Below are positions 19,392-64,000 of a stretch of 64,000 bases of DNA, piece after piece (position 1 is the first letter of the stretch; the number at the start of each line of letters is the position of its first letter). The position numbers and the translations under genes were made by a program. The notes beneath the pieces are model-generated. The model ran no database searches, was not told the DNA's origin, and saw only the letters and a program-made list of their open reading frames with translations. The stretch is from an uncultured Alphaproteobacteria bacterium (GTDB taxonomy: Bacteria > Pseudomonadota > Alphaproteobacteria > CAAGCB01 > CAG-977): contig CALDOX010000015.1 in assembly GCA_937912005.1 (NCBI GenBank), positions 180,303-244,302 on the forward strand. Reading direction: 5' to 3'.

Positions 19392-19404
19392 GGGAGGAAA
19401 CGTC

Positions 19405-20142
19405 ATGACTACATCGGTAAGCGGAATAGACGTTTTAAACAAAGCCGTCAGCTCGGGAAAAGATTCCGGCAGCTCGAAAACGCAGCTGTTCGACGATATG
19501 GAAGCATTCCTCTTTTTGCTGACTCAGCAATTAAAATACCAGGACCCTTTGGATCCTATGGATACCAGCGAATACACCAACCAACTGGTCCAATACGCTC
19601 AGGTCGAACAAAGCATCCAATCCAACACTTATTTGGAAACGATCGTGGCGCAAAACGTCAATGCCGTTGCGACTCAGGCGGTCAGCTATATGGACCAGTA
19701 CATACAAGCCCTCGGCAGCGGACTGCCGCTGCAGAACGGAAGCGCTAAATTTTCCTATGTGTTGGGAGCCGACGCCTCTTCATGCGTCGTCGCCATCAAA
19801 GACGCGTCAGGAAACTTTGTGAAAAGCTTTACCGGTGTCGAACAGTCCGCGGGACGTCATGAAATGACATGGGACGGCAAAGACAATTACGGCAATCAGC
19901 TGGAAGACGGAGCTTACACACTTGTCGTAACGGCTCTGGATTCCACAGGTTCCTCTGTTGAAGTGCAGACGACCGTTTTCGGAAAAGTCACCGGTGTGGC
20001 TTATGACGGTGACAGCGTCGCCATCGGTATGGGCGGCATCGCCGTTGATATGAACAGCGTTCTGGCCATCCACAGCAAAGATGATGTTGTTTCAGCTTCG
20101 AACAACGCTTCTGAAACGGAAGAGGGAATACAAACGGTTTAA
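19405..20142 (+). CDS. flgD: Flagellar hook assembly/capping protein FlgD.
   Basis: The FlgD N-terminal motif (FLFLLTQQLKYQDPLDPMDTSEYTNQLVQYAQVEQ) and a C-terminal Ig-like domain. Confidence 0.85.
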   Translation: MTTSVSGIDVLNKAVSSGKDSGSSKTQLFDDMEAFLFLLTQQLKYQDPLDPMDTSEYTNQLVQYAQVEQSIQSNTYLETIVAQNVNAVATQAVSYMDQYIQALGSGLPLQNGSAKFSYVLGADASSCVVAIKDASGNFVKSFTGVEQSAGRHEMTWDGKDNYGNQLEDGAYTLVVTALDSTGSSVEVQTTVFGKVTGVAYDGDSVAIGMGGIAVDMNSVLAIHSKDDVVSASNNASETEEGIQTV

Positions 20143-20230
20143 TACAAGCCGATCAGAAAATTCGGCATAAAACGGCGCTTCTTTATACAGAAACGTAAAA
20201 AGAAGGCCAAAAGAAAAAAGGAGAATGACA

Positions 20231-31270: not shown

Positions 31271-31280
31271 AGAACTGTAA

Positions 31281-32267: not shown

Positions 32268-33079
32268 ATACGTCAACAACGCAAAACTCCTCTGAACAGA
32301 TACTGGCCTTAGCACCCAGAAAGGTTATGCGCCCTCAGGTCCGCAATATGATTGCAGTTGCTTCCGGAAAAGGCGGCGTCGGCAAAACCTGGTTTTCAAT
32401 CACGCTTGCCCATGCTTTCGCGCAAAACGGCTTAAAAACTTTGCTTTTTGACGGAGATCTGGGATTGGCGAATATTGATATTCAGCTGGGATTGATGCCG
32501 TCGCATGATCTGGGCAGCGTCATCGCCGGAAAGATCACGCTCAATCAGGCAATCTGCCACTATGAAGAAGGCGGCTTTGACATTATCGCCGGCCGGTCGG
32601 GCTCAGGCAGTCTGTCCAATGTACCGCTGAGCCGTCTGCAGCTGATCAACGATGATTTGCGTTTGTTGGCCGGCGGATATGACCGCGTGATCGTGGATTT
32701 GGGCGCCGGCGTGGAAAAACCCGTGCGTTTGTTTGCTTCTTCCGCGGCTACGTTATTGATTGTCTGCACGGATGAACCGACTTCTTTAACAGACGCTTAC
32801 GCATTCATCAAAATGGTTTGCATGGAACAGCCGCAGCCCAATATCAACATTGTTGTCAACTCGGCCAATTCCGCCCGGGACGGAGAAAGAACCTACACAA
32901 CGCTGTTGAAAGCCTGTCAGGGATTCCTGCGCATTTCACCGCCTTTGGCCGGCGTGATTCGCAGAGATACGCGCGTTCGGGACGCCATTCGCAATCAAAC
33001 ATCCATCCTGCGCCGCCATCCCAATACGGAAGCCGCCGAAGACGTTTTAACCATCGCCGCCCGCCTGACCAAAGAATAA
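32264..33079 (+). CDS. fleN: MinD/ParA-type flagellar number regulator FlhG/FleN.
   Basis: Deviant Walker A (VASGKGGVGKTWFSITLA). The start overlaps the flhF stop (ATGA). Confidence 0.8.
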   Translation: MNTSTTQNSSEQILALAPRKVMRPQVRNMIAVASGKGGVGKTWFSITLAHAFAQNGLKTLLFDGDLGLANIDIQLGLMPSHDLGSVIAGKITLNQAICHYEEGGFDIIAGRSGSGSLSNVPLSRLQLINDDLRLLAGGYDRVIVDLGAGVEKPVRLFASSAATLLIVCTDEPTSLTDAYAFIKMVCMEQPQPNINIVVNSANSARDGERTYTTLLKACQGFLRISPPLAGVIRRDTRVRDAIRNQTSILRRHPNTEAAEDVLTIAARLTKE

Positions 33080-33089
33080 AGGCTTTTAA

Positions 33090-35018: not shown

Positions 35019-36070
35019 AGGATAAAAAAGGATACTACGCCATACTGCATGTTGATGAAACGGCCAGCGAAAAGGAAATAAAAAACGCTTTTCGCCGCGA
35101 AGTTAAACTGTATCATCCCGACAAAAACCATGATCCGAACGCCGGAGCAATCTACCTGAAAATTAATGAATCTTATCGGGTTTTAACCGATCCCGATGCC
35201 CGGAAAGCTTACGACAATCTGCCTGATGCCGCCGCCGATTTTATTCCTTGCTGTCTATGCGGCCGGCATGCGCATCAGCCGCGGTTCATTTTTTTTGATG
35301 TCGGTGAAAACATTTCGCAAGGCGGCGTATATTGCCGCCCCTGCGCTTCCCGTCGGCAATTCAAAGCCGCAATGAAAATCTGGAAAAAATTTCTGATTTC
35401 TCCGGTTAAAAGCTGGCGTTTGTTAAAGCAAGCCAGAGCCATGCGGGAACAACCCGCTGACAAAAACTTTGATATGCTGCTGCAAAACGCGGCGGCTTTC
35501 AACAGCGAAAAACGGTATGGTTTAGCAAAATTTCTGGCGGAACAGGCGCGGCGGTTCGCGCCCGATCAGCCGGAACGTGCGAAAGTCAATACGTTCCTGA
35601 ACATTCTTCCCGAAGCTCCGTACCGCTATGAACCGGACGAATGGAAAATTAAAGGAACGGATACACTGCGTGTTTACCTCCCTGTTTTTATCGGCATTCT
35701 GATTATTTTATTGCTTTTTTCTTTTCCGTATCTTCCGCGCTTATTACCGGATAATTCTTATGATTTGGCTGATTATGAACAGCAAAACGTTATCTTTTTG
35801 CCTTTCGGCCTGTCCGATGAAACTCAGCTGTATCATACTCGAAAAGACAATGTTTCCGCTTATCAGGCTCCCAGTACAAAAAGCGGTATTTTAGCTGTTT
35901 TACCGGCACAAACAACGGTCCGTATGACGGGATATGTACCGAAGACACCTTGGGTACAGGCGATGACGCATCAAGGCTTGATTGTCTTTATCCGCCGATC
36001 CGATTTGGAAAAAGGAGTCGGTGCGGAAAAAAAGCCTTACAATTCAAAAATCCTGCCGACAAAAGATTAA
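35009..36070 (+). CDS. J-domain (DnaJ-like) membrane protein with a Cys-rich segment and a C-terminal SH3-like domain.
   Basis: J-domain (YYAILHVDETASEKEIKNAFRREVKLYHPDKN). A CCLCGRHAH...CRPCAS Cys cluster, a TM helix (VFIGILIILLLFSFPYL), then a C-terminal region. Its TTG/GTG start overlaps the upstream stop, so it is translationally coupled to the flagellar operon. Confidence 0.65.
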   Translation: MGVKDKKGYYAILHVDETASEKEIKNAFRREVKLYHPDKNHDPNAGAIYLKINESYRVLTDPDARKAYDNLPDAAADFIPCCLCGRHAHQPRFIFFDVGENISQGGVYCRPCASRRQFKAAMKIWKKFLISPVKSWRLLKQARAMREQPADKNFDMLLQNAAAFNSEKRYGLAKFLAEQARRFAPDQPERAKVNTFLNILPEAPYRYEPDEWKIKGTDTLRVYLPVFIGILIILLLFSFPYLPRLLPDNSYDLADYEQQNVIFLPFGLSDETQLYHTRKDNVSAYQAPSTKSGILAVLPAQTTVRMTGYVPKTPWVQAMTHQGLIVFIRRSDLEKGVGAEKKPYNSKILPTKD

Positions 36071-41202: not shown

Positions 41203-44200
41203 ATGACGCAGGACACAGAAGCCGAATACAACTCGAATGCTTTTTCCGACGATACAAAAATGATGTTTTCCGAACAAAGCGGTTTGCCTGAACAAGTCAA
41301 ACCGCAAAAAACGGATAACAGCTTGATCGCCGCTGCCGCTTTAAGCATTGTCTGGGCCTTTTTGGTCATTGATTATCTGCTGTCCAGCGGTTGGTGGGCA
41401 GCACGTTTTGAAATGACTCCGCCCGAGTTTATGAGCATTATCGCCGGATCTTTGTCTCCGTTTGCTTTTATTTGGATTGCCGCCATTTATTTTTCTTCTC
41501 AGCGCAAATATGTCAAAGAAGCCCGAAAGCTGCGCAGTTATATTTTTGAATTTACGCATCCCAACGCCAAAAACAAATTATACGTCAAGTCCCTGTTGGA
41601 TGATATCCGCCAACAAACATCGGATTTAAACATTGTGTACGGCTTGTTGAAAGAATGCACAAACAACACGCAAAACGCTTTAAAAGACCGATTAAACGAT
41701 CTGAACCGCATTGTCGCCGCCCTTCAGGAAGACATCGAAACATCCGTTCATAAAATAGGGCAGCAAACGGAACTGCTTAACGAATCGTCCGTACAAATCA
41801 ATGAAAGAACAACAGAAGCTGCCGGATTGCTGGAAACGAACCTGACGGCCATTCAAACCGCAGCCGATCAATTTTCCGACCTGACATCTTCGGTTAATTC
41901 CGATTTGCAAACTGCTGTTCATCAACTGACCGAAACCGGCGATACGCTCTCCGACAAAACGCTGCGCATTTCTTCCGAAATTCGGGAACAACAAACATTA
42001 CTGCAAAACACCGCTGAAAACGTACGCGATATTATGACGCGTCAAACAGCCGCCGCAGCCGCGGAATTAAACCGTCAGAGCGCTTTTATTGTCGAAGCGG
42101 GGAATCGCATATTCGAGACAGTCAACCAACAATCACTCCGCGTCAAAGAGGCTGTTGAAAATCATGTAGCCGCCCTGACCGGCAGCGGCGAATCTATTGA
42201 AAATAATGTTTATTCCATTATCTCCGATTTAGAAACACAGATTTCTGTTCTGAACGATACGGCGCAATCCGCTCAAGACAACACGGAAAAAATGCTGTCC
42301 GGATTGGAACGGCGCATCAATATGCTTGAAGACCTTTTCAGCAAACAAATCGATACCGTTTCCGCCAACGACAAACAGCTGCTTGAAACAGCCGGACAAA
42401 TTCAAAACACCTTTAAAGAACAAAATGCGCTGCTGGATCAGGAAGCGGAAAAAATTATCACGCGTTTCAAAACGATTGAAACAACATTGGATACTTATAT
42501 TAATGAAATCAATTCGGCTTCGACAACCGCGATTGATCAAATTTCCGTCGTTTCCGAATCCCTGAGCGGAAAAGCGGGCCAGATTGCCGCCGTCGGCGAA
42601 CAAACCCGGACAGAAATATCGGCTGTTGACGAAGATATTTCAAACAGAGCCGGCCGTTTGACGGAAGCGGTTTCCAGATTGAAAGAACGGGCTGAAACCG
42701 TTTCGGCGGCTTTAACCGAGCATACTCAAAAACTGGCGGAAGCATTGGACGGCACAGAGCCGCGCTTATCCGCCATTCAGGAAAACATTCGGACAAGCCT
42801 TGCGGAACTGAACGACAACATAACCGCGACAGAAGAAAAAACGGAAACGGCTTGCCAGAAATTAATGAAGCAAAACAATGAGTTGTCAGATTTGACCGGT
42901 GCTTTGGTTTCTCAAGCGATTGTAACGGAAACATCTTTGGCTCAGCAACAAAAATACATTTCCAACGCTGCCGCAAAAATAGATGCGGCCAAAACCGATC
43001 TGAAAGAACAATCGACAGATTTGACGGATATTGCCGAATTGCTTGATTCGCGTGCGGCGGAAACGGTTTTGCGTCTGACCCGTTTATTCGAAGACACTCT
43101 GACGCAGTCCGGCAAAATCGTCGATCAGGTCAATACGCTGGATGCCAGCCTTTTAAGTAAAATCAACGCCTTGGATATGTCTTCGCAAAAGACGGTCATC
43201 GCCAACAATACGCTGCATGAAGAATTGGATCGCCATAAAGCGCTTTTGGACGCTTCCGCAAATCGGATGACCACCTACGCGGAAGAAATAAGCGCGGAAA
43301 TTGCCAGACAAACGACTCAAATGGATATTTCTTCCGAACTGATCCAATCCCGCTGTGAAAAAGTCGTTCAGCAAATTGACGAACAGTTCAGAAAATTAAC
43401 GGAAGACGCCCAAATTTTAATTGACAACACACAAAACGCTTCCACCGTGATGACGGATCAGTCCGAAAAACTTGAAACGCTCTTTAACCGGCAAAACTCA
43501 ACATTATCCGAAGTATCGGACAAACTGGCGGAACAAAGTTCTCAGGTTGCAACGATGCTTCGCGAACAATCCGAACAGGCGGATAAAGATTTGGAACGCC
43601 TTGTTTCCAGAATCAATTTAATTGAAGAAGGATTGAACGTTCAAACAAAAGAACTCTCCCACGCTTCCGAAATGACCATATCGCAGCTGGAAACCGTCGG
43701 AACAGCCTTAACGCGCCAAGCGGAAACATTGTCAACGCTCAGCGATGACACGAAGGAAAAAATAGCAGAAATCAGTTCTTCCGTTTCCGACGCCACGACA
43801 AAATTATCGGAAATGGCGCAGATCGCCTGCCAACGCAATTCCGAATCTTTATCCGCTTTGGAAGCCAAACAAAATGACTTTAAGCAATCCGCAGACGATT
43901 TGATGCAGAGAATCCTTGCTTTGCAGGATGAAATATCGCAGCAAACCGACAATTTGCAAAAACAGTCTGTCAAATCGACACAGCAAGCCGTTATGGTACG
44001 CGATTCCATGCAACGGCATATTGTTGATCTGGGAGACGTGGCCAATATCGTGGCAACGCAATCCCGTATGGGGGAAGCGGCGCTAAGCAATCAGATCAAT
44101 TATCTGAAAGAAGCGGCGGAAAACGTTATGACGCACATCCGAAGCATTAATGAAGCGGTTCGTCAGAATACAAACGATTTGTTGACCGCGTCTTCGCGAA

Positions 44201-45369
44201 TCGGTTTTGAATTGGATGCGATGGGTGAAAATTTGCGCCGCAGAAATGAGGAAGCATCCAAATCTGCCGAAGACAGTTTGGCCAGATCGCAGGCCGCCGC
44301 TCAATTTTTGGAAGAAAAAGCTATTCTTTTATCCGATATGACCGAACAGGTAACGAACAATCTGACGACGGCCGGCAATGAATTTTCAGCCCATGCCAAT
44401 ATGATCGAAGCTGCCGGACAAATCGCCAGGGAACAGCTGGAAACGACGGGAGAATCTTTCCTGGTTCAATCTCATCAGCTGACCCGTATTTCCGAAGACG
44501 CACAAAAGGCCGTTAAAAACCTGAGTATTGTTATGCGGGAACGGGCGGTTGATTTCAATAAAACCGCCGAAGAAGCCGGCGCCCGGGTACGCAGTATGAA
44601 TGATACCATCATACAGATCGAAAAAGAATTTGAAGAAATGTCAAACAAAGGCGTTATTCAAATTGACCTGGCCGGCCAGCGTCTGCGCTCCATGCTCAGC
44701 GAAGTGGCCGGAAATTCCGAACGCATTGCCGTTGAAGTGCGTAAATCCGGCGAACAGTTTGTCGATCAGTCGGATTTGTTGTCCGTCGCTGCGGATGACG
44801 CATTAAAACGGCTGCAGAATTTATTGAATATCATGCGTGAAAACGCCAAAGAAATTCAGGAATCCGGCGAAAAGATTTCGGCTCAGTCTCTGAAATTGGG
44901 CGGTGCGTTCAACAGACAGGTTCAGTCTTTGATTTCCGCCTCCCGATCGGCGGAAGAATACATTACCGCATTGGATAAAAGAAAAGAAGAAGCCGATACG
45001 GATCGTTTTATGAAAGAAGCCTCTTTTATTCTGGAAAGGCTGCAGTCTTTGGGTGTTGATATGGCGCGCATTTATACGCCAAATGTTGAAGAAGACCTTT
45101 GGAAACGGTATTATTCCGGCGACAGAAGCGCGTTTATTCGTCATCTGTCCCGCGCAGTCGACAAACAACAAGTACGAAAAATAACGGAAACTTTTACGGA
45201 AAACGCTGAATTCAGAGAATATGTTTCCCGCTATATTGCCGAATTTGACAGTATTTTATCCCGCGCTCAGGAAAATGAACGCTCTGATATTTTAACCGGT
45301 ATTTTGCTGGGCTCCGAAGCGGGACGTTTGTACATGCTTCTATCCAAAATCTTCAATAAGGAAGCTTAA
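41203..45369 (+). CDS. Large two-TM coiled-coil protein with TipN-like topology (candidate polarity/flagellar-placement landmark).
   Basis: 1388 aa. It has a ~40-aa cytoplasmic head and two TM helices (LIAAAALSIVWAFLVIDYLLS; IIAGSLSPFAFIWIAAIYF). About 1290 aa of Glu/Gln/Leu/Thr-rich heptad-like sequence follows, with no recognisable catalytic motifs. Confidence 0.45.
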   Translation: MTQDTEAEYNSNAFSDDTKMMFSEQSGLPEQVKPQKTDNSLIAAAALSIVWAFLVIDYLLSSGWWAARFEMTPPEFMSIIAGSLSPFAFIWIAAIYFSSQRKYVKEARKLRSYIFEFTHPNAKNKLYVKSLLDDIRQQTSDLNIVYGLLKECTNNTQNALKDRLNDLNRIVAALQEDIETSVHKIGQQTELLNESSVQINERTTEAAGLLETNLTAIQTAADQFSDLTSSVNSDLQTAVHQLTETGDTLSDKTLRISSEIREQQTLLQNTAENVRDIMTRQTAAAAAELNRQSAFIVEAGNRIFETVNQQSLRVKEAVENHVAALTGSGESIENNVYSIISDLETQISVLNDTAQSAQDNTEKMLSGLERRINMLEDLFSKQIDTVSANDKQLLETAGQIQNTFKEQNALLDQEAEKIITRFKTIETTLDTYINEINSASTTAIDQISVVSESLSGKAGQIAAVGEQTRTEISAVDEDISNRAGRLTEAVSRLKERAETVSAALTEHTQKLAEALDGTEPRLSAIQENIRTSLAELNDNITATEEKTETACQKLMKQNNELSDLTGALVSQAIVTETSLAQQQKYISNAAAKIDAAKTDLKEQSTDLTDIAELLDSRAAETVLRLTRLFEDTLTQSGKIVDQVNTLDASLLSKINALDMSSQKTVIANNTLHEELDRHKALLDASANRMTTYAEEISAEIARQTTQMDISSELIQSRCEKVVQQIDEQFRKLTEDAQILIDNTQNASTVMTDQSEKLETLFNRQNSTLSEVSDKLAEQSSQVATMLREQSEQADKDLERLVSRINLIEEGLNVQTKELSHASEMTISQLETVGTALTRQAETLSTLSDDTKEKIAEISSSVSDATTKLSEMAQIACQRNSESLSALEAKQNDFKQSADDLMQRILALQDEISQQTDNLQKQSVKSTQQAVMVRDSMQRHIVDLGDVANIVATQSRMGEAALSNQINYLKEAAENVMTHIRSINEAVRQNTNDLLTASSRIGFELDAMGENLRRRNEEASKSAEDSLARSQAAAQFLEEKAILLSDMTEQVTNNLTTAGNEFSAHANMIEAAGQIAREQLETTGESFLVQSHQLTRISEDAQKAVKNLSIVMRERAVDFNKTAEEAGARVRSMNDTIIQIEKEFEEMSNKGVIQIDLAGQRLRSMLSEVAGNSERIAVEVRKSGEQFVDQSDLLSVAADDALKRLQNLLNIMRENAKEIQESGEKISAQSLKLGGAFNRQVQSLISASRSAEEYITALDKRKEEADTDRFMKEASFILERLQSLGVDMARIYTPNVEEDLWKRYYSGDRSAFIRHLSRAVDKQQVRKITETFTENAEFREYVSRYIAEFDSILSRAQENERSDILTGILLGSEAGRLYMLLSKIFNKEA

Positions 45370-45542: not shown

Positions 45543-45872
45543 ATGCAAATCGAAAAAACGCAGGAAGGTGATATTGTTGTTTTGAAGGTTATCGGCCAGC
45601 TGACATCGTCAACATCGCCTGCGCTGGAAACCGCTGTTAACGACGTTTTGAAAACGGAAAGCAATCTTGTTTTAGATTTTGCCGAATTGGATTTTTTGGC
45701 TTCCTCCGGTTTACGCGTCATTTTATCGACTCAGAAAAGAATAAACGCCAAAAACGGCGCGCTGGTTATCCGCAACGTCAATAAAGTTGTGATGGAAGTG
45801 TTTGAAATGACCGGATTGCGGGATTTTCTCAATGTTTTCCAGGGCAATCGGCAGATTTCCGGTTCAAAATGA
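45543..45872 (+). CDS. STAS-domain anti-sigma-factor antagonist (SpoIIAA/RsbV-like).
   Basis: 109 aa. LDFAELDFLASSGLRVIL is a typical STAS phospho-serine region. Strong RBS (AGGAGA). Confidence 0.8.
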   Translation: MQIEKTQEGDIVVLKVIGQLTSSTSPALETAVNDVLKTESNLVLDFAELDFLASSGLRVILSTQKRINAKNGALVIRNVNKVVMEVFEMTGLRDFLNVFQGNRQISGSK

Positions 45873-45920: not shown

Positions 45921-48218
45921 ATGCTCGAAAAAAAAGCCCCCTCTTTGCACCGCGTTTTTCAAGCGTGGTTGTTGTTGTTTGTCTTTATCGCTTTTTGCAT
46001 CATATTCGGCCTTTCGTATTTCTTTCAAACGCGTTCGGCTCAAAATATGATGATGCGTCAGGCGGTTTTACATTTGGATTATATCGGCAATCAGGTCAAA
46101 ATCATTGAAGACGATTTAAAAGATCTGAAAAAAGAATTAAGCAACGGTTTGGTTGAAAAAGCCCGTGTTTTTGCCATGCTTTTGAAAAATGCGCCGATAT
46201 TGCTGCATAATAAAAACTTTTTGCGTGATTGGAGCAAAGACGCGGGAATAGAAGAAATCAGCATCCTTGGCAAAGACGGCATCGTGATCGAATCTTTTCC
46301 GGAAAAATTCATCGGCACCGATTTTAAAGAATACGATCTGATGCACCCCTATTTACCGTTGATTAACAAGAACAACGGCGTTTATATCGAAGATTTGCGC
46401 ACCAGTTATAACAAAAGCGGCAGCGTTAATTCGTTGGTACAATTTGTCGGCGTATCACGTTTGGATGCTCCCGGCGTCATTCAGATGGGGTATTCGGCCG
46501 AACGATATGCCGAAGCATTAAAAACGGCGTCCGCCGACGTTTTAGCCGATGATTATATTCTGGGAAAAGACGGTTTTATCATTATCTCAAAAGACGATAA
46601 AATTATCAGCGCCGGACATAAAGAGTTAAAAGGAACGACTTTGACGGGTTCCGATTGGAACTTCATCAAAGATATGCCGGAAAATCAGATTTTATTAAAA
46701 AATTCCGTTTTCCTGATGTCACGACAAATTGATTCTTATCGTTTAACCGCCGTCATGCCGAAAAGCGATGTTTACGCCTTCCGCAATACGATTTTATCGT
46801 GGGCGGCTCTCGTTTACATACTTCTGCTGTTCATCGTGTACGTTTTCCTGTCGGCATTATTGGAGCGGGTCGTCGTCCGCGGGATTGAAAAAACAAACAC
46901 GACATTGGAAAAAATTACCGAAGGAAACCTGAACGAAAAAGTCGATGTGCATTCGAATCTGGAATTTGTTTCTCTGTCCAACGGCATTAACACAATGGTT
47001 GACACGTTGAAAGAAGCGATTGCCGAAGCAGCCGCCCGTTTGGATAAGGAATTGGAATTTGCCCGAGAAATTCAACATGCCGCTTTGCCGCGCATATTTC
47101 CGCCGTATCCCAACAAAAACGAATTCGATATTTTTGCATCAATGACGGCGGCAAAAGAAGTCGGAGGCGATTTTTACGATTTCTTTTTATTGGGACACAA
47201 CGGAAGTCATATCGGCATCGTCATTGCCGACGTATCCGGAAAAGGAATTCCGGCTGCTTTGTTTATGATGTCCGCCAAAACGCTAATCAAAAATTTTGCC
47301 GAAACGGGAATGTCGCCCGCAGAAATTTTTTATCATACAAACGAAAAATTATGTGAAAACAACGAAGCCGGCATGTTTGTAACGGCGTTTATGGGGATAT
47401 TGGAAATCGAAACCGGCAAATTCACCTATGTCAATGCGGGACACAATCCTCCGTTGATAAAACGGGCGGACGGCGGTTTTGAACGAATGACGTTAAAACC
47501 TGGATTTATGTTGGGCGCTCTGGATTCTTTTGCGTATCAACAGAGCGAAACATGTCTGGACGGCGGCGACACCATATTTTTATATACCGACGGTGTTACG
47601 GAAGCTCAAAATAAAAACCTGGAATTGTTTGGAGACGATCGTTTGCGCGACGTTTTGAACGAAAACGCTGATAAAGCGCCGAAAGAACTGCTGACAGCCG
47701 TGCATAAAGCGGTTGCCGCGTATGTTGACGGCGCGGAACAATCCGATGATTTAACTATGCTGGCTTTGACATATCATCCGAAAACGCTGACCGTTCCCGC
47801 TGAAATCGAACATCAGGACGACGTTATGAACTTTGTTGACGAGATGTTGAAAAAAGCCTCCGCATCGCCGGAAACCATCGCCAAAACGAATATCGTGTTG
47901 GATGAAATTTTTACCAACATCTGTCATTACGCATATGCGCCGGCCAAAGGAACAGCGACGATTCGTTGTTGTGTCGGCGGAACGCCCGCTTTTATGTCTT
48001 TGGTATTCCGCGACAAAGGAAAGCCGTTTAACCCGTTGAACAAAGCGGATCCTGATATTACGGCAAAAATAGAAGACCGTGAAATCGGCAATCTGGGCAT
48101 TTTTATGGTAAAACAGATCATGGATTCCGTCGAATATGAATACAAAAACGAAGAAAACGTGCTGACCATGGTCAAACGTTTGGAAACCGCTTTGAACGAA
48201 AAACAGCCGATTGATTAA
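45921..48218 (+). CDS. Fused partner-switching protein: membrane sensor, HAMP, PP2C (SpoIIE/RsbU) phosphatase and an RsbW-like GHKL serine kinase, all in one polypeptide.
   Basis: Two TM helices flank a ~250-aa periplasmic domain, followed by a HAMP-like helix. Next comes the PP2C domain (VGGDFYDFF...GIVIADVSGKGIPAALFM...LYTDGVTEA). Last comes a HATPase_c_2 domain (N-box DEIFTNICHYAY, G-box GNLGIFMVKQ). Confidence 0.75.
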   Translation: MLEKKAPSLHRVFQAWLLLFVFIAFCIIFGLSYFFQTRSAQNMMMRQAVLHLDYIGNQVKIIEDDLKDLKKELSNGLVEKARVFAMLLKNAPILLHNKNFLRDWSKDAGIEEISILGKDGIVIESFPEKFIGTDFKEYDLMHPYLPLINKNNGVYIEDLRTSYNKSGSVNSLVQFVGVSRLDAPGVIQMGYSAERYAEALKTASADVLADDYILGKDGFIIISKDDKIISAGHKELKGTTLTGSDWNFIKDMPENQILLKNSVFLMSRQIDSYRLTAVMPKSDVYAFRNTILSWAALVYILLLFIVYVFLSALLERVVVRGIEKTNTTLEKITEGNLNEKVDVHSNLEFVSLSNGINTMVDTLKEAIAEAAARLDKELEFAREIQHAALPRIFPPYPNKNEFDIFASMTAAKEVGGDFYDFFLLGHNGSHIGIVIADVSGKGIPAALFMMSAKTLIKNFAETGMSPAEIFYHTNEKLCENNEAGMFVTAFMGILEIETGKFTYVNAGHNPPLIKRADGGFERMTLKPGFMLGALDSFAYQQSETCLDGGDTIFLYTDGVTEAQNKNLELFGDDRLRDVLNENADKAPKELLTAVHKAVAAYVDGAEQSDDLTMLALTYHPKTLTVPAEIEHQDDVMNFVDEMLKKASASPETIAKTNIVLDEIFTNICHYAYAPAKGTATIRCCVGGTPAFMSLVFRDKGKPFNPLNKADPDITAKIEDREIGNLGIFMVKQIMDSVEYEYKNEENVLTMVKRLETALNEKQPID

Positions 48219-48384: not shown

Positions 48385-49251
48385 ATGACGATGACAACAG
48401 CTTTTTTACCAGTCGTTCAAAACGGCATACAATCTTATTTGGCGTCAATCAGACGCATTCCCGTTTTATCTGCCGAAGAAGAATATATGCTGGCGAATCG
48501 GTTTCGCAATCATGGCGACTTGTCCGCAGCAAAAAAACTGATTTCGGCACATCTGCGGTTGGCTGCTAAAGTCGCCTTTTCCTATCGGTTCTACGGCCTG
48601 CCTATGGAGGATTTGATTTCCGAAGCCAATATCGGCCTGATGCAGGCGGTCAAACGCTTTGAACCGGATAAAGGCAACAGGCTTTCCACCTATGCGGTTT
48701 GGTGGATTAAAGCCGCCGTCAACGAATTTATTTTAAAATCCTGGTCTTTAGTGCGGATCGGCACAATCGCGGCACAAAAGCGGTTGTTTTACAATCTGCG
48801 CAAAATCAAAGCGAAACTGGGACTTTACGACAATACGTCGTTAGATCAGGAAAGCATCAAAGAAATATCGCAAAACCTGAATGTGCCCGAAGAAGATGTC
48901 GCGGAAATGGATATCCGTTTAAACGGAGACGTTTCTTTAAACACGCCTGTTTATGAGGACGGCTATGCCGAAAAACAGGACTTTTTAAGCGATGACCACA
49001 ACATTGAAGAATCGCTGGCCGAACATCAGGAAAGCACGATGCGCCTGCAGCTGCTGGCGCAGGCGATGGGCAAACTGAACGATCGCGAACGTGCGATTAT
49101 CCGGGCGCGCAAACTGTCCGAAACACCGGATACATTGGATGCTTTAGGCGAACGTCTGGGCATTTCCCGCGAACGCGTGCGTCAAATTGAAAACCGCGCC
49201 GTTGAAAAAATGACACAGTTTATTCAGTCCCGCGCGGGTGCGCTCGTTTAA
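48385..49251 (+). CDS. rpoH: RNA polymerase sigma-32 factor RpoH.
   Basis: 288 aa with sigma-70 regions 2-4. The RpoH box-like segment and an alphaproteobacterial RpoH-style N-terminus (SYLASIRRIPVLSAEEEYMLA). Confidence 0.9.
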   Translation: MTMTTAFLPVVQNGIQSYLASIRRIPVLSAEEEYMLANRFRNHGDLSAAKKLISAHLRLAAKVAFSYRFYGLPMEDLISEANIGLMQAVKRFEPDKGNRLSTYAVWWIKAAVNEFILKSWSLVRIGTIAAQKRLFYNLRKIKAKLGLYDNTSLDQESIKEISQNLNVPEEDVAEMDIRLNGDVSLNTPVYEDGYAEKQDFLSDDHNIEESLAEHQESTMRLQLLAQAMGKLNDRERAIIRARKLSETPDTLDALGERLGISRERVRQIENRAVEKMTQFIQSRAGALV

Positions 49252-49301: not shown

Positions 49302-52300
49302 TTATGCTTCCTGTTCTTCCGCTAATTTAGCCGCAGTAATGTAATCAAACTTGCCCGACCCCAAAACAGGCGGTTCTTTGACATAAATAAACTTGGACGG
49401 AGATCCGAGTTCGTTAAAGCCTTGATCTTTAATATAAGCTCTGATTTCAGACAGATCCGCATCCTGTTTCGTCGTAATCAAAACCAGCTTTTCACCCTTC
49501 TTCGGATCGGGAACGGAAACAAGTCCTTGCACCGCATCGGGATAAAGTTTTGACAACAACTGTTCTATCGCCGTCAAAGAAACCATTTCACCGCCGATCT
49601 TGGCGAAGCGTTTAGCGCGTCCCTGAATAAAAACAAAACCGTCTTTGTCAATCGTGACGATATCGCCCGTATCGTGCCATCCGTCTTTTGGCGGAATCAA
49701 AACACCCGGATTATCGGCTTTCATATAGCCCTGCATCACATTATCTCCGGAAACCAACAGCTTGGCTCCTTCTTTAATACCGGGAACTTCTTCCAATTTA
49801 GCCGCCATTTTTGGCAACAAGCGGCCGACGGAACCTTCACGAATATACATCGGCGTGTTTAAAGAAATAACCGGAGCCGTTTCCGTCGCGCCGTATCCTT
49901 CTAAAATACGGACGCCGAATTTGCGCATCCACAATTCGGACGTGCTCGGCTTCAACTTTTCGGCACCGACAATCGCATAACGCAGCGCAAAGAAATCGTA
50001 GGGGTGAGCCATTGCGCCATACCCCGCGAAGAACGTGTCCGTTCCGCACAAAACCGTCGCGTTTGTTTCATAAACCAATTCCGGCACAATACGATAATGC
50101 AGCGGAGACGGATAAAAGAATGTTCGTATCCCGGATAAAAGCGTTAAAATAGTGCCGACCCCCAAACCGAATGCATGGAACATCGGCAGCGCATTGAAAA
50201 ACACGTCAGCGGAAGTGATCGCAATCACGCTCAGCGCCTGATAACGGTTCGCTTGGAAATTCCGATGAGACAGCAGCACGGCTTTCGGCATACCTTCCGA
50301 TCCGGAAGTAAACATAATCGCCGCCGTATGGTCGGGGCCATTTTTCGGCTTCTTTGAAGTCAGATACGCCAATATTCCTTTCAGTTTATCCTCAAACAAA
50401 ACTTCCGAAGCGAAATCTTCCAGATAAACGACTTTGATGCCGTTTTCCTTTAAAGCTTCTTCCAGTTTTTCCAAATGAGCGTTTTCAATAAATTTCCTTG
50501 ATGTCAGAACGGTTTTCAGCTGCACCGTCTTCACACAGGAAACCACCTGCGCCACGCCGGTGGAAAAGTTCAGCATAGCCGGCACTTTATCAATGCTTTG
50601 CAAAGCGAAAAACGACACAACATTCGCTAAAACGTTCGGCAATAAAAGCCCCAGCCGTTCTTCGTCTTCAAAACAGCGCTCCATAGCTTTGCCCAAGACA
50701 TAGCTTTTCAAAATCAATGTCTTGTATTTAATCGGTTTTCGACTGACATCTTCCGCAATGATATGATTTTTGCCGTTGACCTTCGACGCGTTCAGCAACG
50801 AAACAAACAGATTTTCGTTAATCTTGGAAGATTCGTAAAGCATATCCGTCATCATATCGTAAAGCTGATTGGATATTTCGTGATTACGCTGACGACTTGT
50901 CCAGGACGGATCTATGTCAAACTTTCTGGGCGGCAGAATGTTCATAATGATTTTGGGGAAATAACGCGTTTTCACGCGGTCTTTCAGCAAAGAAAACTTG
51001 GAATACTGCGCCCCGTTGATACGAACGGGCAAAATATTGGCGTTCGCTTTTTCGGCAACCAGCCCCGCCCCTTCATAGACTTTCATCAATGCGCCCGTCA
51101 CGCTGATCCGGCGTTCGGGAAAGATCATCACTTTATTGTTTTTCTTGATCAAATCGACCAAAGAACGGATCGACAGCGGATTGTTCAAATCCAACGGATA
51201 CAGATCAATCATCAGGCTGAACAGTTTTGCAAACCATTTGTTTTCCCATTCCGGCTTAATCACAAAAGTGATTTTTTCAGGCATAAACGCCGCTATCAAC
51301 AAACCGTCCAGCAATGATGTATGATTGGCCACGATTAAAACGCGCTTGCCGGCCGCTTGGAAATTGGGTAATCCTTTGACCGTTACGCGGTAGAAAAATT
51401 CCAAAATCGTTTGAACGATCGACCGCAATAAAGCCGCGGGCAAAACGGAACAGTTATAAACAGACACGATAAAACTGGCAATTCCGGCGAATAAGAACAA
51501 AGCCGCGATACTTAAACCGGCATGACGCGCCGCGATAAAAATCAGCGCCATTAATGCGATCCCTGCCGCATTAATCAAATTGCCGGCGGCAAAAACGGTG
51601 GCTCTGTTCGCATCCGAAGCTTTGCTGCGGATCAATGCCGTTAAAGGGATAACATACATACCGCATGAAAACCCCGATAAAAACAGAAAAACGGAAAAAA
51701 AGATCACGCGCGGACGCAAAACAAATTCCGCAAACGAAGCCGTTTGAACCGGAGCTGCATATTCCGCCGTCAGGAAAAAAAGCATCATAAAGCAAATGCC
51801 CATTCCGATTGTACTGATCGGCACAAAAGTCGTATGCGCTATTCCTTTTAACAGCCGATGACAGTACATCGCTCCGGTGCCGACACCGGCCGCGTATAAG
51901 AGCAGCTGGAAAGCAACGGCAAAATTATCCGCATGAAAGACCTGTTCCGTCAACGGATAAACCTGCATAATCATCAGCAACCCGATGGACCAAAACCATG
52001 TTGTCCCCAATATGCTGCGGAAAATCAAAGGATACTTGCGCACAGTCCGCAAAGTTTTCCATATCCCGATCAGCATATCTTTCGGTGAATTGCTGCTGTT
52101 TTTTTCTTCCTGCTCATCTTTTATCGCATCGGCGGAAGAACGCCATGTCAAAAAGAACCCGATAACGGAAAAAACGATCAAAAAGGCGGCAGCCACTCTG
52201 ACGGGCACCAAAGTTCCGAGCAGCAACGCCGCTACGATACTGATATACGTTGTCTTTTCGATATACGCGTTTCCGGCCGTCAGATCACTTTCTTCCAGCT

Positions 52301-52673
52301 GATCGGGCTGAAAAGCGTAACGTATCGGTCCTAAAAAAGCGGACAGCGCCCCATATAAGAACGGCAGAAGAATCAACAAGCCGATGTTTTTCGTCAATAA
52401 AACGCTTCCGGCCAACAGCATTAAAGCCAATTCCGTTAAATTCAACGACAAGGAAGTTTTGATTCTGTTATATTTTTTCGCCAGTTGGGTTGCTCTGGCA
52501 GAAAATAAAAAGAACGGCAGAATCAACATACCGGCAACAATGTTATACGGATCGTCCGTCTGCTGTGTAATCCGGACGGCTATCATCGTTAACAAAGTAA
52601 TCCGGAACAAATTATTGGTCAGCGCCGAAATGATATGGGAAAATATCTCTGAACTTAACTTAGGCAGCGGCAT
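49302..52673 (-). CDS. aas: Fused lysophospholipid transporter LplT (MFS), 2-acylglycerophosphoethanolamine acyltransferase and acyl-ACP synthetase (Aas).
   Basis: 1123 aa. An N-terminal 12-TM MFS region, a central PlsC-type acyltransferase with the HXXXXD motif (VANHTSLLDG), and a C-terminal AMP-binding domain (TSGSEGMPKAV...GYGATE). Confidence 0.85.
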   Translation of the reverse strand: MPLPKLSSEIFSHIISALTNNLFRITLLTMIAVRITQQTDDPYNIVAGMLILPFFLFSARATQLAKKYNRIKTSLSLNLTELALMLLAGSVLLTKNIGLLILLPFLYGALSAFLGPIRYAFQPDQLEESDLTAGNAYIEKTTYISIVAALLLGTLVPVRVAAAFLIVFSVIGFFLTWRSSADAIKDEQEEKNSSNSPKDMLIGIWKTLRTVRKYPLIFRSILGTTWFWSIGLLMIMQVYPLTEQVFHADNFAVAFQLLLYAAGVGTGAMYCHRLLKGIAHTTFVPISTIGMGICFMMLFFLTAEYAAPVQTASFAEFVLRPRVIFFSVFLFLSGFSCGMYVIPLTALIRSKASDANRATVFAAGNLINAAGIALMALIFIAARHAGLSIAALFLFAGIASFIVSVYNCSVLPAALLRSIVQTILEFFYRVTVKGLPNFQAAGKRVLIVANHTSLLDGLLIAAFMPEKITFVIKPEWENKWFAKLFSLMIDLYPLDLNNPLSIRSLVDLIKKNNKVMIFPERRISVTGALMKVYEGAGLVAEKANANILPVRINGAQYSKFSLLKDRVKTRYFPKIIMNILPPRKFDIDPSWTSRQRNHEISNQLYDMMTDMLYESSKINENLFVSLLNASKVNGKNHIIAEDVSRKPIKYKTLILKSYVLGKAMERCFEDEERLGLLLPNVLANVVSFFALQSIDKVPAMLNFSTGVAQVVSCVKTVQLKTVLTSRKFIENAHLEKLEEALKENGIKVVYLEDFASEVLFEDKLKGILAYLTSKKPKNGPDHTAAIMFTSGSEGMPKAVLLSHRNFQANRYQALSVIAITSADVFFNALPMFHAFGLGVGTILTLLSGIRTFFYPSPLHYRIVPELVYETNATVLCGTDTFFAGYGAMAHPYDFFALRYAIVGAEKLKPSTSELWMRKFGVRILEGYGATETAPVISLNTPMYIREGSVGRLLPKMAAKLEEVPGIKEGAKLLVSGDNVMQGYMKADNPGVLIPPKDGWHDTGDIVTIDKDGFVFIQGRAKRFAKIGGEMVSLTAIEQLLSKLYPDAVQGLVSVPDPKKGEKLVLITTKQDADLSEIRAYIKDQGFNELGSPSKFIYVKEPPVLGSGKFDYITAAKLAEEQEA

Positions 52674-59172: not shown

Positions 59173-60585
59173 ATGAACAAAAAATTAAAGCACTCCTTAT
59201 TATTATCCATTTATATCTTGGGATATACAAGCCTGTCTTTTGAACTGATTATTCTCAGACAATTTGTCAATTTTGTCGGTTCAAATACTTTGATCACGTC
59301 TATTATTATGGCGTTTATTCTGATGTTTTTGTCTCTCGGGTATTATTTGGGCTCTGTAATTCGTTTTTCAAAACACCCTATTCGAAAAAATATCATTAAA
59401 ACAGTTTATTGTCTCTCCGGCTGGTATATTTTAGCCTGCTCATTTCCAATCATCGGCAGCTTGTTTTACATACTGTATTCTTCAGGAATAACCTCCGCCA
59501 CCGCTCAAGTGACAATTATGTCATTGATCTTATTAATTTTCCCCTCTGTCGGCTTAGGATTTATCACATCCGTTATAGGCAGAATCGTCCACCATTCCGA
59601 TTCAAATTACACGGGACGCTTTATGGCTGTCGATACTCTCGGCAGCGTATCGGGATCTTTATTGACCACATTATTTTTTATGCCGTTATTAGGCGTATAT
59701 GCGGCCACAACTCTTCTGGTTTTTTTAACCGCCTGCGTTTTATTGTTGCTTTCCCCCTCCCGAAAAAAAATTTTTTCCCTTTCCTTTGTTGTTCTTATAA
59801 CAGCCGCCGCCCTTTTCAGCTCTAATGAAAAATTGCTGCAAAAAGATTCTTCTTTGGTTCTGGACGATGCCGTTTCAAGAATAGAAATTGTCGAAACAGA
59901 TCAGACCGACGGAGAATTTTTATCCAAACAAATGTTCATCAACGGCTCAAATTCTTCAAAAATATCCAAAAAAGACGACTTGATGTTCGGATACATAAAC
60001 TACATCAACAACACTTTTATCAATACGCTGCCTGCCGATAAAGTTCATAACATTCTTGTTCTGGGCGCCGGCGGTTTTACGGCCGGAAAAGACGACACGA
60101 GAAACAATTATGTTTATCTTGACGTCGTTAAAAACCTGAAACAGATTTCAGAAGATCTTTTCTTGGACGAACCGCTGACAAAAAACAAAACGTTTATCGC
60201 TCAAGACGCTTATCTGTTCATGCTTAAAGACAAGAAAAAATACGATCTGATATTAGTGGACGTTTATTCGGCACAGCGCAACATTCCCGTTAATTTTGTC
60301 ACGGCGGATTTCTTTGAAATGGTCAAAAACCATCTGGAAAAAAACGGTGTTATGCTTGTCAACATTATCACTTCGCCGTCATTTAAAAACAAATATGCGG
60401 CAAGATTGGACAACACGCTCCGTTCGGTTTTCCCACACTATTTATCCAGACAAATCATAGCAGGGAAACGGTCTTATAATCCATATGCGGACGATCTGCG
60501 CAATATCATATACACTTATTACAATTATCCGTATGATAACGGAATTTACACTCTGAACAAGAATTCGGCCGTCTTTGGTCAATAA
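59173..60585 (+). CDS. Membrane-anchored spermidine/spermine synthase-family protein (polytopic N-terminus fused to an aminopropyltransferase-like domain).
   Basis: 6-7 N-terminal TM helices. The C-terminal region carries VLGAGGFTAGKDD and YDLILVDVYSA, resembling spermine_synth family motifs. Local GC is about 35%. Confidence 0.6.
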   Translation: MNKKLKHSLLLSIYILGYTSLSFELIILRQFVNFVGSNTLITSIIMAFILMFLSLGYYLGSVIRFSKHPIRKNIIKTVYCLSGWYILACSFPIIGSLFYILYSSGITSATAQVTIMSLILLIFPSVGLGFITSVIGRIVHHSDSNYTGRFMAVDTLGSVSGSLLTTLFFMPLLGVYAATTLLVFLTACVLLLLSPSRKKIFSLSFVVLITAAALFSSNEKLLQKDSSLVLDDAVSRIEIVETDQTDGEFLSKQMFINGSNSSKISKKDDLMFGYINYINNTFINTLPADKVHNILVLGAGGFTAGKDDTRNNYVYLDVVKNLKQISEDLFLDEPLTKNKTFIAQDAYLFMLKDKKKYDLILVDVYSAQRNIPVNFVTADFFEMVKNHLEKNGVMLVNIITSPSFKNKYAARLDNTLRSVFPHYLSRQIIAGKRSYNPYADDLRNIIYTYYNYPYDNGIYTLNKNSAVFGQ

Positions 60586-62239: not shown

Positions 62240-62330
62240 AATATCATCCTTCTTTTTTGAAACGAGCCTTTGTTTAAATAGGATCAAACCTAGCCAAAAT
62301 CAATATATCCCAAAATATATTTTTTTACCC

Positions 62331-62358
62331 CTTGCGCTTTGAAAACAGCGTCCTATCT
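62331..62358 (+). promoter_or_regulatory. Candidate sigma-32 (RpoH)-type promoter for the Hsp20 operon: CTTG-N18-CCTATCT.
   Basis: cCTTGcgctttgaaaacagcgtCCTATCTg lies about 60 nt upstream of the first hsp20. It has the same architecture as the clpB promoter candidate. Confidence 0.45.
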
Positions 62359-62416
62359 GAACATCAGAAGCCGAGAAAGAAAAGCTTGGCACAGTATCTT
62401 GAAAAGGAGAAAGATT

Positions 62417-62878
62417 ATGTCCAATATGGTTACAAGAAAATATGACAGCGAACCGCGCACAACGGATGTTTGGGGATTGCAGTCTGACATCAACCGCCTG
62501 TTTGACACTTTTATGATGCCGTTTGAAAGAACGGTGGTCGGAAAGGATTTGGCTCCGAAACTGGATGTCGCGGAAATGAAGGACAAATATGAAATCAAAG
62601 CGGAACTGCCGGGAATTGACGAAAAAGACATCGACGTGTCAATGGATGACGGCGTTCTGACGATCAGCGGCGAAAAGAAAGCCGAAGCCGAAAGCGACGA
62701 CAAAGGATACTATCTGAAAGAATGCTCTTACGGTTCGTTCAGCCGATCAATCCGTTTGCCGGAAAATATTGCCGATGATAAAATCATCGCGAAATTCGAC
62801 AAGGGCGTTTTAATGATCGACCTTCCCAAAAAAGAACCGACAGTTGCAAAAACGAAAAAAATCGCGATTACCCATTAA
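62417..62878 (+). CDS. Small heat-shock protein (Hsp20/alpha-crystallin family), cytoplasmic.
   Basis: Alpha-crystallin domain (PKLDVAEMKDKYEIKAELPGIDEKDIDVSMDDGVLTISGE...GSFSRSIRLP). RBS AAGGAG. Confidence 0.85.
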   Translation: MSNMVTRKYDSEPRTTDVWGLQSDINRLFDTFMMPFERTVVGKDLAPKLDVAEMKDKYEIKAELPGIDEKDIDVSMDDGVLTISGEKKAEAESDDKGYYLKECSYGSFSRSIRLPENIADDKIIAKFDKGVLMIDLPKKEPTVAKTKKIAITH

Positions 62879-62889
62879 GAAGAAAAGTC

Positions 62890-63369
62890 GTGAATAAACT
62901 TCTATTCTCTTTAACGGCTGCTGCCGCCCTGATGACGGCAGCGCCTGTCAATGCGCAGGCTGTCCGCGTCAGAGACCCGTTCAATTCGTTTTTCGATGCA
63001 ATGATGTTTGCTCCGCAGCCATTTGAAATGCCGCAATTTGCGGGACCGAAAATGGATGTGGCGGATTTAAAGGACAAAATCGAAGTGAAAGTCGAGCTGC
63101 CCGGCATGGAAAAGGACGAAGTAACGCTGACGTGCGAAAACAACGTTCTGACGCTCAGCGGAAACCGCAAACAGGAAACGGAGGAAAAAAGCAAGGATTA
63201 CTATCTGAAGGAAATTTCCTCCGGCTCTTTCAGCCGGTCGATCCGCCTGCCGCAAAATATTGACGAATCAAAAATCGAAGCGGAATTTAAAAACGGCGTT
63301 CTGACCGTCATCATTCCGAAAACGGAAGTTACAAAAGATCCCGTAAAAACGATCCCGATCAAAGGATAG
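62890..63369 (+). CDS. Hsp20-family small heat-shock protein with a predicted Sec signal peptide (periplasmic sHSP).
   Basis: N-terminus MNKLLFSLTAAAALMTAAPVNAQA (n-h-c regions with AxA-like VNA-QA), followed by the alpha-crystallin domain (MDVADLKDKIEVKVELPGMEKDEVTLTCENNVLTLSGN...GSFSRSIRLP). GTG start, 11 nt after the first hsp20. Confidence 0.7.
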   Translation: MNKLLFSLTAAAALMTAAPVNAQAVRVRDPFNSFFDAMMFAPQPFEMPQFAGPKMDVADLKDKIEVKVELPGMEKDEVTLTCENNVLTLSGNRKQETEEKSKDYYLKEISSGSFSRSIRLPQNIDESKIEAEFKNGVLTVIIPKTEVTKDPVKTIPIKG

Positions 63370-63378
63370 TATCCAAAG

Positions 63379-63406
63379 CCGCCGGAAAATTCCCGACGGC
63401 TTTTTT
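63379..63406. terminator. Probable bidirectional terminator between hsp20-2 and the GNAT gene.
   Basis: aagccgccgg-aaaattc-ccgacggct followed by TTTTTTTT. Confidence 0.45.
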
Positions 63407-64000
63407 TTATGCTTCAAACAACTGTCCGGGCAGTTTCAGTTTTTCCTTCGGCGGGAAGGTCGCTTCGTAAGCGTCAAAAGCTTCCGGATTGTTCTGACAG
63501 ACGAAGTATCCTTCCGGATCGCGAAAAACGCCTTTGACGCCGTTGAAATATCCGGCGGTCAGTTCGCGGCACAGCAGATATTCGGCCTCCGGATCGTCGG
63601 CGTACCGGATGCCTTTCGTCTTGGCGACGACAAAGCCCGACTTGCCGTAAAAGTCGATGTTTCCTTCGATCACAATGCCGCCGGCATTCATCGCTTTCGC
63701 CTTTTCCAGCGACGCGTCCAACAGATATTTGCCGTATCCTTGCCTTTTCAATTCCGGCGCGATGCAGATCGGCCCGAAAACCATAATCGGCAATCTTCCG
63801 CCGTTGTCCAGTTCCAACGCCGTTCGCACATACATCACCTGTCCGATGATTTGTCCGTCCTTTTCCAACACCAGATCCAGTTCCGGCACAAAAACCGGAT
63901 TGTCCCGAAAGCAGTGCATCACATAGTGTTCCATACACCCCGGACGGTACACGTTCCAAAAAGATTCCCTGATCAGATTTTCGACCGCGCGCCAATCGTC
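63407..64000 (-). CDS. GNAT-family N-acetyltransferase (partial; the N-terminus lies beyond the window end).
   Basis: The frame is open to 64000 (..DDWRAVENLIRESFWNVYRPG..). Acetyl-CoA binding motif QGYGKYLL. Confidence 0.7.
   Translation of the reverse strand, partial: DDWRAVENLIRESFWNVYRPGCMEHYVMHCFRDNPVFVPELDLVLEKDGQIIGQVMYVRTALELDNGGRLPIMVFGPICIAPELKRQGYGKYLLDASLEKAKAMNAGGIVIEGNIDFYGKSGFVVAKTKGIRYADDPEAEYLLCRELTAGYFNGVKGVFRDPEGYFVCQNNPEAFDAYEATFPPKEKLKLPGQLFEA

Follow-up and report, generated by a model that had tools for sequence, protein, structure and literature searches.

A candidate heat-shock operon pairing a cytoplasmic small heat-shock protein with a predicted Sec-exported paralogue in gut and rumen Alphaproteobacteria

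Two tandem hsp20 genes lie near the end of a 64 kb window of contig CALDOX010000015.1, from an uncultured alphaproteobacterium; the window is the whole stretch of DNA that was analysed, all coordinates are in its numbering, and the operon elements are on the plus strand. The first open reading frame (ORF), hereafter gene 1 (h1), encodes a predicted cytoplasmic small heat-shock protein (sHSP), and the second, gene 2 (h2), encodes an sHSP that begins with a putative signal peptide. An earlier note on this DNA had described such a tandem pair, and both its coordinates and its peptide sequence were correct: the two ORFs match PF00011 and are separated by exactly 11 nt (Table 1). In what follows, L numbers denote related hsp20 loci and P numbers protein representatives.

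Table 1. Features of the tandem hsp20 locus and the rpoH gene of the window.
Feature	Position	Strand	Details
A/T-rich tract, UP-element-like	62312..62327	+	just upstream of the -35 box; equivalent run before CTTG in orthologous loci
RpoH (sigma-32)-type promoter	62331..62358	+	-35 CTTGCG 62331-62336, 15-nt spacer, -10 CCTATCT 62352-62358
5'-untranslated-region stem-loop GCCGAG/CUUGGC	62370..62390	+	9-nt loop; predicted minimum-free-energy hairpin
Shine-Dalgarno AAGGAG of gene 1	62404..62409	+	strong site 7 nt before ATG; invariant across 26 aligned loci
hsp20 gene 1, sHSP, predicted cytoplasmic	62417..62878	+	ATG ORF, 153 aa, PF00011 E 9e-26, no signal peptide
Weak Shine-Dalgarno AAGAAG of gene 2	62877..62882	+	overlaps the gene 1 TAA stop, 7 nt before GTG
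hsp20 gene 2, whole ORF	62890..63369	+	GTG ORF, 159 aa (17.7 kDa at full length), PF00011 E 2e-26 over residues 58-158
Putative signal-peptide coding part of gene 2	62890..62955	+	residues 1-22, MNKLLFSLTAAAALMTAAPVNA; heuristic pass, site VNA/QA
Predicted mature part of gene 2, with stop codon	62956..63369	+	137 aa, 15.5 kDa, isoelectric point 5.15
Intrinsic terminator, hairpin + U8	63375..63411	+	dG -13.8 kcal/mol, z -3.3 vs shuffles
rpoH (sigma-32) gene	48385..49251	+	TIGR02392 rpoH_proteo 333.3 bits vs cut-off 323.1

The gene 2 product is a member of the sHSP family by domain, fold, N-terminal region and I-x-I motif. Only HSP20-type families were matched in Pfam, which reports the related ArsA_HSP20 beside PF00011 HSP20. 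The alpha-crystallin domain spans about residues 54–144 (nt 63049–63321) and is followed by a C-terminal I-P-I motif (I155-P-I157, nt 63352–63360), both isoleucines of which are invariant in 36 aligned clade members. An AlphaFold2 (AF2) model is predicted to be all-beta, with predicted local distance difference test (pLDDT) scores of 85–94 over residues 54–144, and leaves residues 1–28 unstructured (pLDDT < 50). The domain has the long beta-hairpin typical of the plant/bacterial type. When the model was compared with the PDB using Foldseek, the top 50 matches were all sHSPs, and the closest solved relative was wheat Hsp16.9 (E 4e-20), which aligns with residues 28–159 only. Mature residues 23–53 (QAVRVRDPFNSFFDAMMFAPQPFEMPQFAGP) are rich in F, M and P, and a conserved DPF motif in the N-terminal region aligns with that of gene 1. 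The two products are 44% identical over 142 residues (E 3e-38). Of the NCBIfam equivalogs IbpA and IbpB, gene 1 scores far under the cut-off and gene 2 finds no match.

The same features bear on whether the protein is still a chaperone. An exported sHSP might have lost its general chaperone function and taken on a specialised or structural role in the envelope, with the alpha-crystallin fold as a scaffold; HSP20-like folds are indeed reused elsewhere, as the ArsA_HSP20 report illustrates, and gene 2 evolves faster than gene 1. We regard such a role as very improbable, given that the F/M/P-rich DPF region and the I-x-I motif are conserved or invariant, and that heat-shock control is predicted jointly with a canonical sHSP.

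Signal peptides were scored with a heuristic that requires a net positive n-region, a hydrophobic h-region and agreement with the -3/-1 rule. The gene 2 product, whose N-terminus reads MNKLLFSLTAAAALMTAAPVNAQAVRV, passes: MNK is followed by 15 uncharged residues, with a best 8-residue Kyte-Doolittle mean of 2.04. The gene 1 product fails. Across the window 5 of 52 ORFs pass, gene 2 among them; the other four comprise a plausible exported comparator at 12334–13422, two ORFs whose N-termini resemble membrane segments and one uncharacterised ORF. MlaC, a bona fide periplasmic protein also encoded in the window, carries a signal peptide of the same build as that of gene 2 (MKKFLSLCFCFLFLSCPTFA/SD, the slash marking the cleavage site).

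A comparative set of 56 full-length clade members, 53–95% identical and holding 50 distinct signal sequences of 20–24 residues, follows one pattern throughout: M-[KNRH]-K, about 15 uncharged and mostly hydrophobic residues, and a c-region ending in Ala. One or two K/R fall within residues 2–5 in every member, and in 55 of the 56 the signal is free of acidic residues up to its last three positions. Around the predicted cleavage site, position -1 is Ala in 56/56, -3 is A/S/V/G in 53/56 and -4 is Pro in 42/56, while +1 is Gln in 53/56 and Glu in the other three. The heuristic passes 54 of 57 clade proteins, and two of the three failures are fragments. Selection for Sec targeting and for cleavage by signal peptidase I would be expected to produce this combination of variable sequence with fixed physicochemistry and a fixed cleavage site. 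The earlier note's signal peptide at the start of the second protein is thus borne out, both by the heuristic and by all 56 relatives, and the comparison supports a textbook Sec/signal peptidase I signal with predicted cleavage at VNA/QA (22/23), because Ala at -1, a small residue at -3 and Gln/Glu at +1 are conserved across relatives. The note's own cleavage site, after AQA, has to be moved to Ala22/Gln23, since many orthologues have I or T at -1 of the AQA-equivalent site. Neither a lipobox Cys nor a twin arginine occurs in residues 1–40, which rules out a lipoprotein or twin-arginine (Tat) signal by sequence.

An uncleaved segment would instead tether the sHSP to the inner membrane or a membrane surface, yielding a ‘lipochaperone’ rather than a soluble periplasmic holdase. 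The gene 2 N-terminus is hydrophobic, membrane-associated sHSPs are established in Oenococcus (Lo18) and Synechocystis (Hsp17), and the library proteins P0125, P0133 and P0137 have apparent N-terminal transmembrane anchors. Against this, the gene 2 core, with its moderate hydrophobicity (2.04), extends over only ~15 residues, short for a transmembrane anchor, and the invariant Ala at -1, small residue at -3 and Pro at -4 over 50 distinct sequences form a signal peptidase I cleavage signature. A membrane anchor therefore seems to us distinctly unlikely.

The reality of the signal depends on where translation of gene 2 begins. The window start codon is GTG, where the earlier note had read ATG, and it follows a weak ribosome-binding site; an in-frame ATG stands at codon 15. 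Translation from an internal codon such as Met15 would give an ordinary cytoplasmic sHSP, with the upstream segment untranslated. However, codon 1 is ATG in 14 of the 16 orthologous species (GTG in the window and L015), and every orthologous locus has a strong Shine-Dalgarno sequence (TAAGGAG, AAGGAGG or AAGAGG) 6–8 nt before gene 2, overlapping the upstream stop. Met15 is not conserved and is missing in many orthologues, for example P0015 and P0018. Later Met codons would lose the conserved DPF motif, ahead of which L004 has no alternative start, and an open frame with n-, h- and c-region features is kept in 50 distinct sequences. Between close relatives, non-synonymous codon differences outnumber synonymous ones in the signal region, never with a frameshift or stop; such an excess is usual for signal peptides. 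An internal Met downstream of the hydrophobic segment, which the earlier note had named as a way its reading could fail, was accordingly rejected on the non-conservation of Met15, the ATG at codon 1 and the conserved Shine-Dalgarno sequence, and a mis-assigned start is extremely improbable.

Gene 2 was found in 16 species in a scan of one genome per species. All are metagenome-assembled genomes (MAGs) from the rumen of sheep, goat, buffalo, yak or roe-deer, or from horse faeces. Rhodospirillales or Azospirillum is the label given to some of them, and close relatives carry the label ‘MAG: Alphaproteobacteria bacterium’. In the same genomes gene 2 evolves faster than gene 1 (48–88% vs 63–88% identity, with longer branches), the gene 1 orthologues being 63–88% identical in 25 species loci. 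Twelve related species have gene 1 only, followed by a terminator. In two loci of species that lack the exported gene (L024:4426-4520 and L025:4393-4490), a signal-like mini-ORF of 26 codons (MVNKNVGLMLTLSVFVSLICFDYIIL and stop) occupies the place of gene 2, behind a Shine-Dalgarno sequence that overlaps the gene 1 stop. Its ATG is changed to ATA in L025, which suggests decay, and the mini-ORF is probably the relic of a deleted exported sHSP gene.

A neighbour-joining tree places the gene 1 clade at 98% bootstrap and the exported clade together with P0121 at 85%, and a recent duplication was rejected on this tree. The earlier proposal of a duplicated chaperone retargeted to the envelope thus survives in part: the genes are 44% identical tandem paralogues and neighbours in the tree, but the duplication is not recent and a strict sister relation was not recovered. 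The simplest reading of this history would be that the genes were duplicated in tandem long ago, that one copy acquired a signal and that losses followed.

The pair appears to be transcribed as a single operon, as had been suggested earlier. The tandem is kept in 13 of the 16 species with a gap of 9–13 nt, the Shine-Dalgarno sequence of gene 2 overlaps the upstream stop, and the only terminator is 3' of gene 2, where a hairpin and T-run recur in most orthologous loci. Three species have gene 2 alone; two of them (L006, L010) carry an RpoH-type promoter directly upstream of it, and the third (L011) has a weak GTTGCA-type match only.

The single sigma-32-type promoter of the earlier note is likewise upheld by its agreement with a known consensus, its conservation upstream in relatives and the presence of RpoH in the window. 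The promoter agrees with the S. meliloti RpoH2 consensus CTTGCC-N15-16-CCTATCT at 12 of 13 positions (the RpoH1 form being CTTGAA-N15-16-CCTATAT; both are quoted in PMC4843759). By eye, a layout of A/T tract, CTTG[CA], ~15 nt and a CC[CT]A[TC]AT-like box was recognised in all 26 gene 1-led loci; judged in this way, the promoter is kept ahead of all 29 related loci, 23 of which match a relaxed pattern. The strict pattern CTTG-N17-CYTATNT has 2 matches in the 64 kb against 0.08 expected, one of them the operon promoter. The second, at 52353–52380 on the minus strand, lies within a 1123-aa MFS-acyltransferase-AMP-binding (Aas-like) fusion gene (49302–52673) and was taken as a chance match. A sigma-70-like match was seen inside gene 1 at 62756–62784, in a scan that returned 4 matches with 1.7 expected. 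The A/T-rich tract may act as an UP element, and the RpoH encoded in the window is presumed to be the trans-acting factor. Heat-shock (RpoH) control of the operon is well supported by these comparisons, and heat induction would be expected.

ROSE and fourU RNA thermometers are the usual control of alphaproteobacterial sHSP genes. An Rfam scan of the 5' untranslated region (UTR) at E up to 10 returned no ROSE, fourU or other thermometer family. A hairpin of 6–9 bp is nevertheless predicted at the same place in most of 25 distinct orthologous UTRs (mean z -1.78 in single-sequence folds), with stem sequences that differ among loci (GCCGAG/CUUGGC, CUUGAGG/CCUCAAG, GCCAUG/CAUGGC and others). RNAalifold on a MAFFT alignment of 26 UTRs gave no consensus fold, MAFFT misaligning loops of different length. 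The stem-loop might stabilise the mRNA or sense temperature in a way not described before. In addition, the UTR (62364–62416) and its equivalents in L001–L028 have a U-rich tract before the Shine-Dalgarno sequence and an A-rich one after it, which might pair weakly into a second hairpin.

The frequency of exported sHSPs was examined in a library of 1.84 billion cluster representatives, which holds 78,446 sHSP representatives at E < 0.001. At 50% identity, the exported clade accounts for one full-length representative, which scores 270 bits. It is followed by two signal-bearing entries that are shorter or more divergent (183 and 178 bits), and the next full-length, non-exported sHSPs score ≤170 bits. 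None of 61 non-clade sHSP matches passed the signal heuristic, and sHSP loci from other phyla gave 1 dubious pass in 52, that is, at most one dubious signal-like start among the 113 other sHSPs sampled. The rarity claimed in the earlier note is therefore confirmed, but the trait is not unique to this clade, as two further signal-bearing families were found.

With a profile that included the signal, the signal-like sHSPs among the top 150 representatives were P0121, P0134, P0148, P0151, P0202 and P0217. P0121 (195 aa; loci L087–L088) is encoded 9 nt behind a gene 1-type sHSP, under a promoter of the form CTTGAA-N15-CCTATGT. The P0148/P0202 family (204–208 aa; loci L081–L086) is monocistronic, with CTTGCA-N15-CTTATAT promoters. 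It occurs commonly in metagenomes, those of mouse gut among them, and outside the family P0202 finds its best matches in the exported clade. Both groups resemble gene 2 in having a signal-like N-terminus, an alpha-crystallin domain and a C-terminal I-P-[IV], and they resemble the window operon in their RpoH-type CTTG[AC]A-N15-C[CT]TAT promoters and 5'-UTR hairpin. They differ from gene 2 in their much longer mature N-terminal regions and in a domain that is only 42–52% identical. Taken together, these sequences suggest that exported sHSPs, though rare overall, comprise more than one family, perhaps of common and older origin.

Two side observations concern these library proteins. The n-region of P0202 contains an S-V-R-R motif that is faintly Tat-like. 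P0125, P0133, P0137 and P0134 (345–442 aa) combine two alpha-crystallin stretches with an N-terminal hydrophobic segment, either a transmembrane anchor or a signal, and may be membrane-tethered double sHSPs.

We consider it probable that the locus is a bicistronic heat-shock operon encoding a cytoplasmic sHSP and a Sec-exported sHSP that would serve as a periplasmic holdase, where export, cleavage, oligomerisation, holdase activity and client fate are deduced from sequence. RNA polymerase with RpoH would initiate at CTTGCG-N15-CCTATCT, and a single mRNA with a structured 5' UTR would carry both sHSP genes and end at the hairpin-U8 terminator. Gene 1 would yield an ordinary cytoplasmic sHSP, and gene 2 would be translated from its start 11 nt past the gene 1 stop. 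The gene 2 product, bearing a Sec-type signal, would pass SecYEG unfolded, and signal peptidase I would remove the signal after Ala22, leaving Gln23 as the first residue. The window encodes the outer-membrane lipoprotein MlaA as well as periplasmic MlaC, and the host is therefore a diderm with a periplasm to receive such a protein. The mature 15.5-kDa protein would keep its hydrophobic N-terminal region, alpha-crystallin domain and C-terminal I-x-I anchor. Because it retains all the features that an oligomeric sHSP needs, it would be expected to assemble in the periplasm and, under heat or other proteotoxic stress, to serve envelope proteins there as a holdase that needs no ATP. Its clients might be released spontaneously or handed to periplasmic proteases.

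The protein might also travel further, to the outer membrane surface, vesicles or the medium, where its targets would belong to the host or the community. Every carrier lives in association with a host, in rumen or gut, gene 2 diverges faster than its partner, and cell-wall-associated sHSPs are known (M. tuberculosis Hsp16.3, myxobacterial SP21). On the other hand, no secretion-system genes, lipobox, beta-barrel or autotransporter domain are associated with gene 2, a gene that shares its heat-shock promoter with a cytoplasmic sHSP is more likely to serve proteostasis, and all chaperone-relevant motifs are retained. A final site beyond the periplasm is in our judgement unlikely; like the membrane anchor, the mis-assigned start and the non-chaperone role, it is less likely than a periplasmic holdase.

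Several points nevertheless weigh against a periplasmic holdase under heat-shock control. The periplasm lacks ATP and lacks DnaK/ClpB, the partners that receive canonical sHSP clients. Sigma-32 regulons mainly serve the cytoplasm, and envelope chaperones are usually under sigma-E or Cpx; moreover, the promoter pattern alone is not fully specific, since its second exact match is intragenic. The signal and localisation calls are predictions from a heuristic and from comparison, and the window's own gene 2 starts with GTG behind the weak site AAGAAG. As regards origin, strict h1+h2 monophyly was recovered in 0/100 bootstraps, with P0124 and P0246 interspersed, so that the two groups are neighbours and not strict sisters.

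Other genes of the window provide context. Directly upstream of rpoH lie a STAS-domain protein (45543–45872) and a HAMP-PP2C(SpoIIE)-HATPase_c_2 fusion (45921–48218); this partner-switching-type module hints at an unusual input into RpoH control. A flagellar gene cluster occupies 17415–35018, with a J-domain protein (35009–36070) at its end; the FlgE-type hook protein in this cluster (20225–23470) is unusually large at 1081 aa. An ORF of 1388 aa (41203–45369) has no significant Pfam match, the best being a sub-threshold ApoLp-III, and a 470-aa polytopic membrane protein (59173–60585) has a weak C-terminal spermidine-synthase-like domain, under the Pfam cut-off.

Bacterial sHSPs are regarded as cytoplasmic holdases that need DnaK/ClpB for client recovery, and the recognised periplasmic chaperones come from unrelated families. 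Against this background, the chances appear evenly balanced that gut and rumen Alphaproteobacteria hold a previously unrecognised class of envelope chaperone: a Sec-exported true sHSP in the ATP-free periplasm, co-transcribed under RpoH with a cytoplasmic paralogue. In that case a single heat-shock signal would supply holdases to the cytoplasm and the periplasm alike, linking the cytoplasmic heat-shock regulon directly to envelope protection, and sHSP-client complexes would be resolvable without Hsp70/Hsp100. Envelope proteostasis would gain a new family in a conserved exported sHSP, which would also offer a natural system for studying client release without ATP, and P0121 and P0148/P0202 would mark an older, wider exported lineage. 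The finding also bears on how its carriers, which are uncultured and live in rumen and gut, cope with host-associated stress. Both proteins are small and soluble, and hence easily tested.

The nearest conceptual precedent is eukaryotic. In plant endoplasmic reticulum (ER)-class sHSPs, a cleavable N-terminal signal peptide puts an ATP-independent holdase into a secretory compartment, and they share with gene 2 the signal peptide on an sHSP. For the mature domain, too, the nearest solved structures come from eukaryotes: wheat Hsp16.9 and S. pombe Hsp16.0. The plant proteins differ, however, in co-translational ER import, in a C-terminal retention signal and in a lumen that contains ATP and BiP, and their origin is independent; the gene 2 product ends in IPIKG, without a retention motif.

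In its proposed job, holding unfolded envelope proteins without ATP after Sec export, gene 2 resembles Spy, Skp, SurA and HdeA/HdeB. It is related to none of them in sequence or fold, Pfam having matched gene 2 to HSP20-type families only and the listed fold matches all being sHSPs. Regulation differs as well, being RpoH-type for gene 2 and under sigma-E, Cpx, Bae or acid regulons for Spy, Skp, SurA and HdeA/B. A 2021 review of stress-responsive periplasmic chaperones names sHsps only as cytoplasmic IbpA/IbpB (PMC8144458). The full-text literature searched yielded no account of a bacterial sHSP that is periplasmic, secreted or equipped with a signal peptide, although open-access coverage is incomplete and a prior description is possible.

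Among bacterial sHSPs, E. coli IbpA/IbpB and the rhizobial class A/B proteins match the window pair in PF00011, in the order of N-terminal region, alpha-crystallin domain and I-x-I, and in heat-shock sigma-factor control, often in tandem operons. They lack a signal peptide, remain cytoplasmic and pass clients to DnaK/ClpB, whereas gene 2 carries a conserved signal that is predicted to be cleavable. Two-component sHSPs, namely IbpA with IbpB and Deinococcus Hsp17.7 with Hsp20.2, parallel the window pair as two diverged, co-expressed paralogues with divided labour. Those partners share the cytoplasm and can co-operate on the same aggregates, whereas the two products of the window operon are predicted to be split by the inner membrane.

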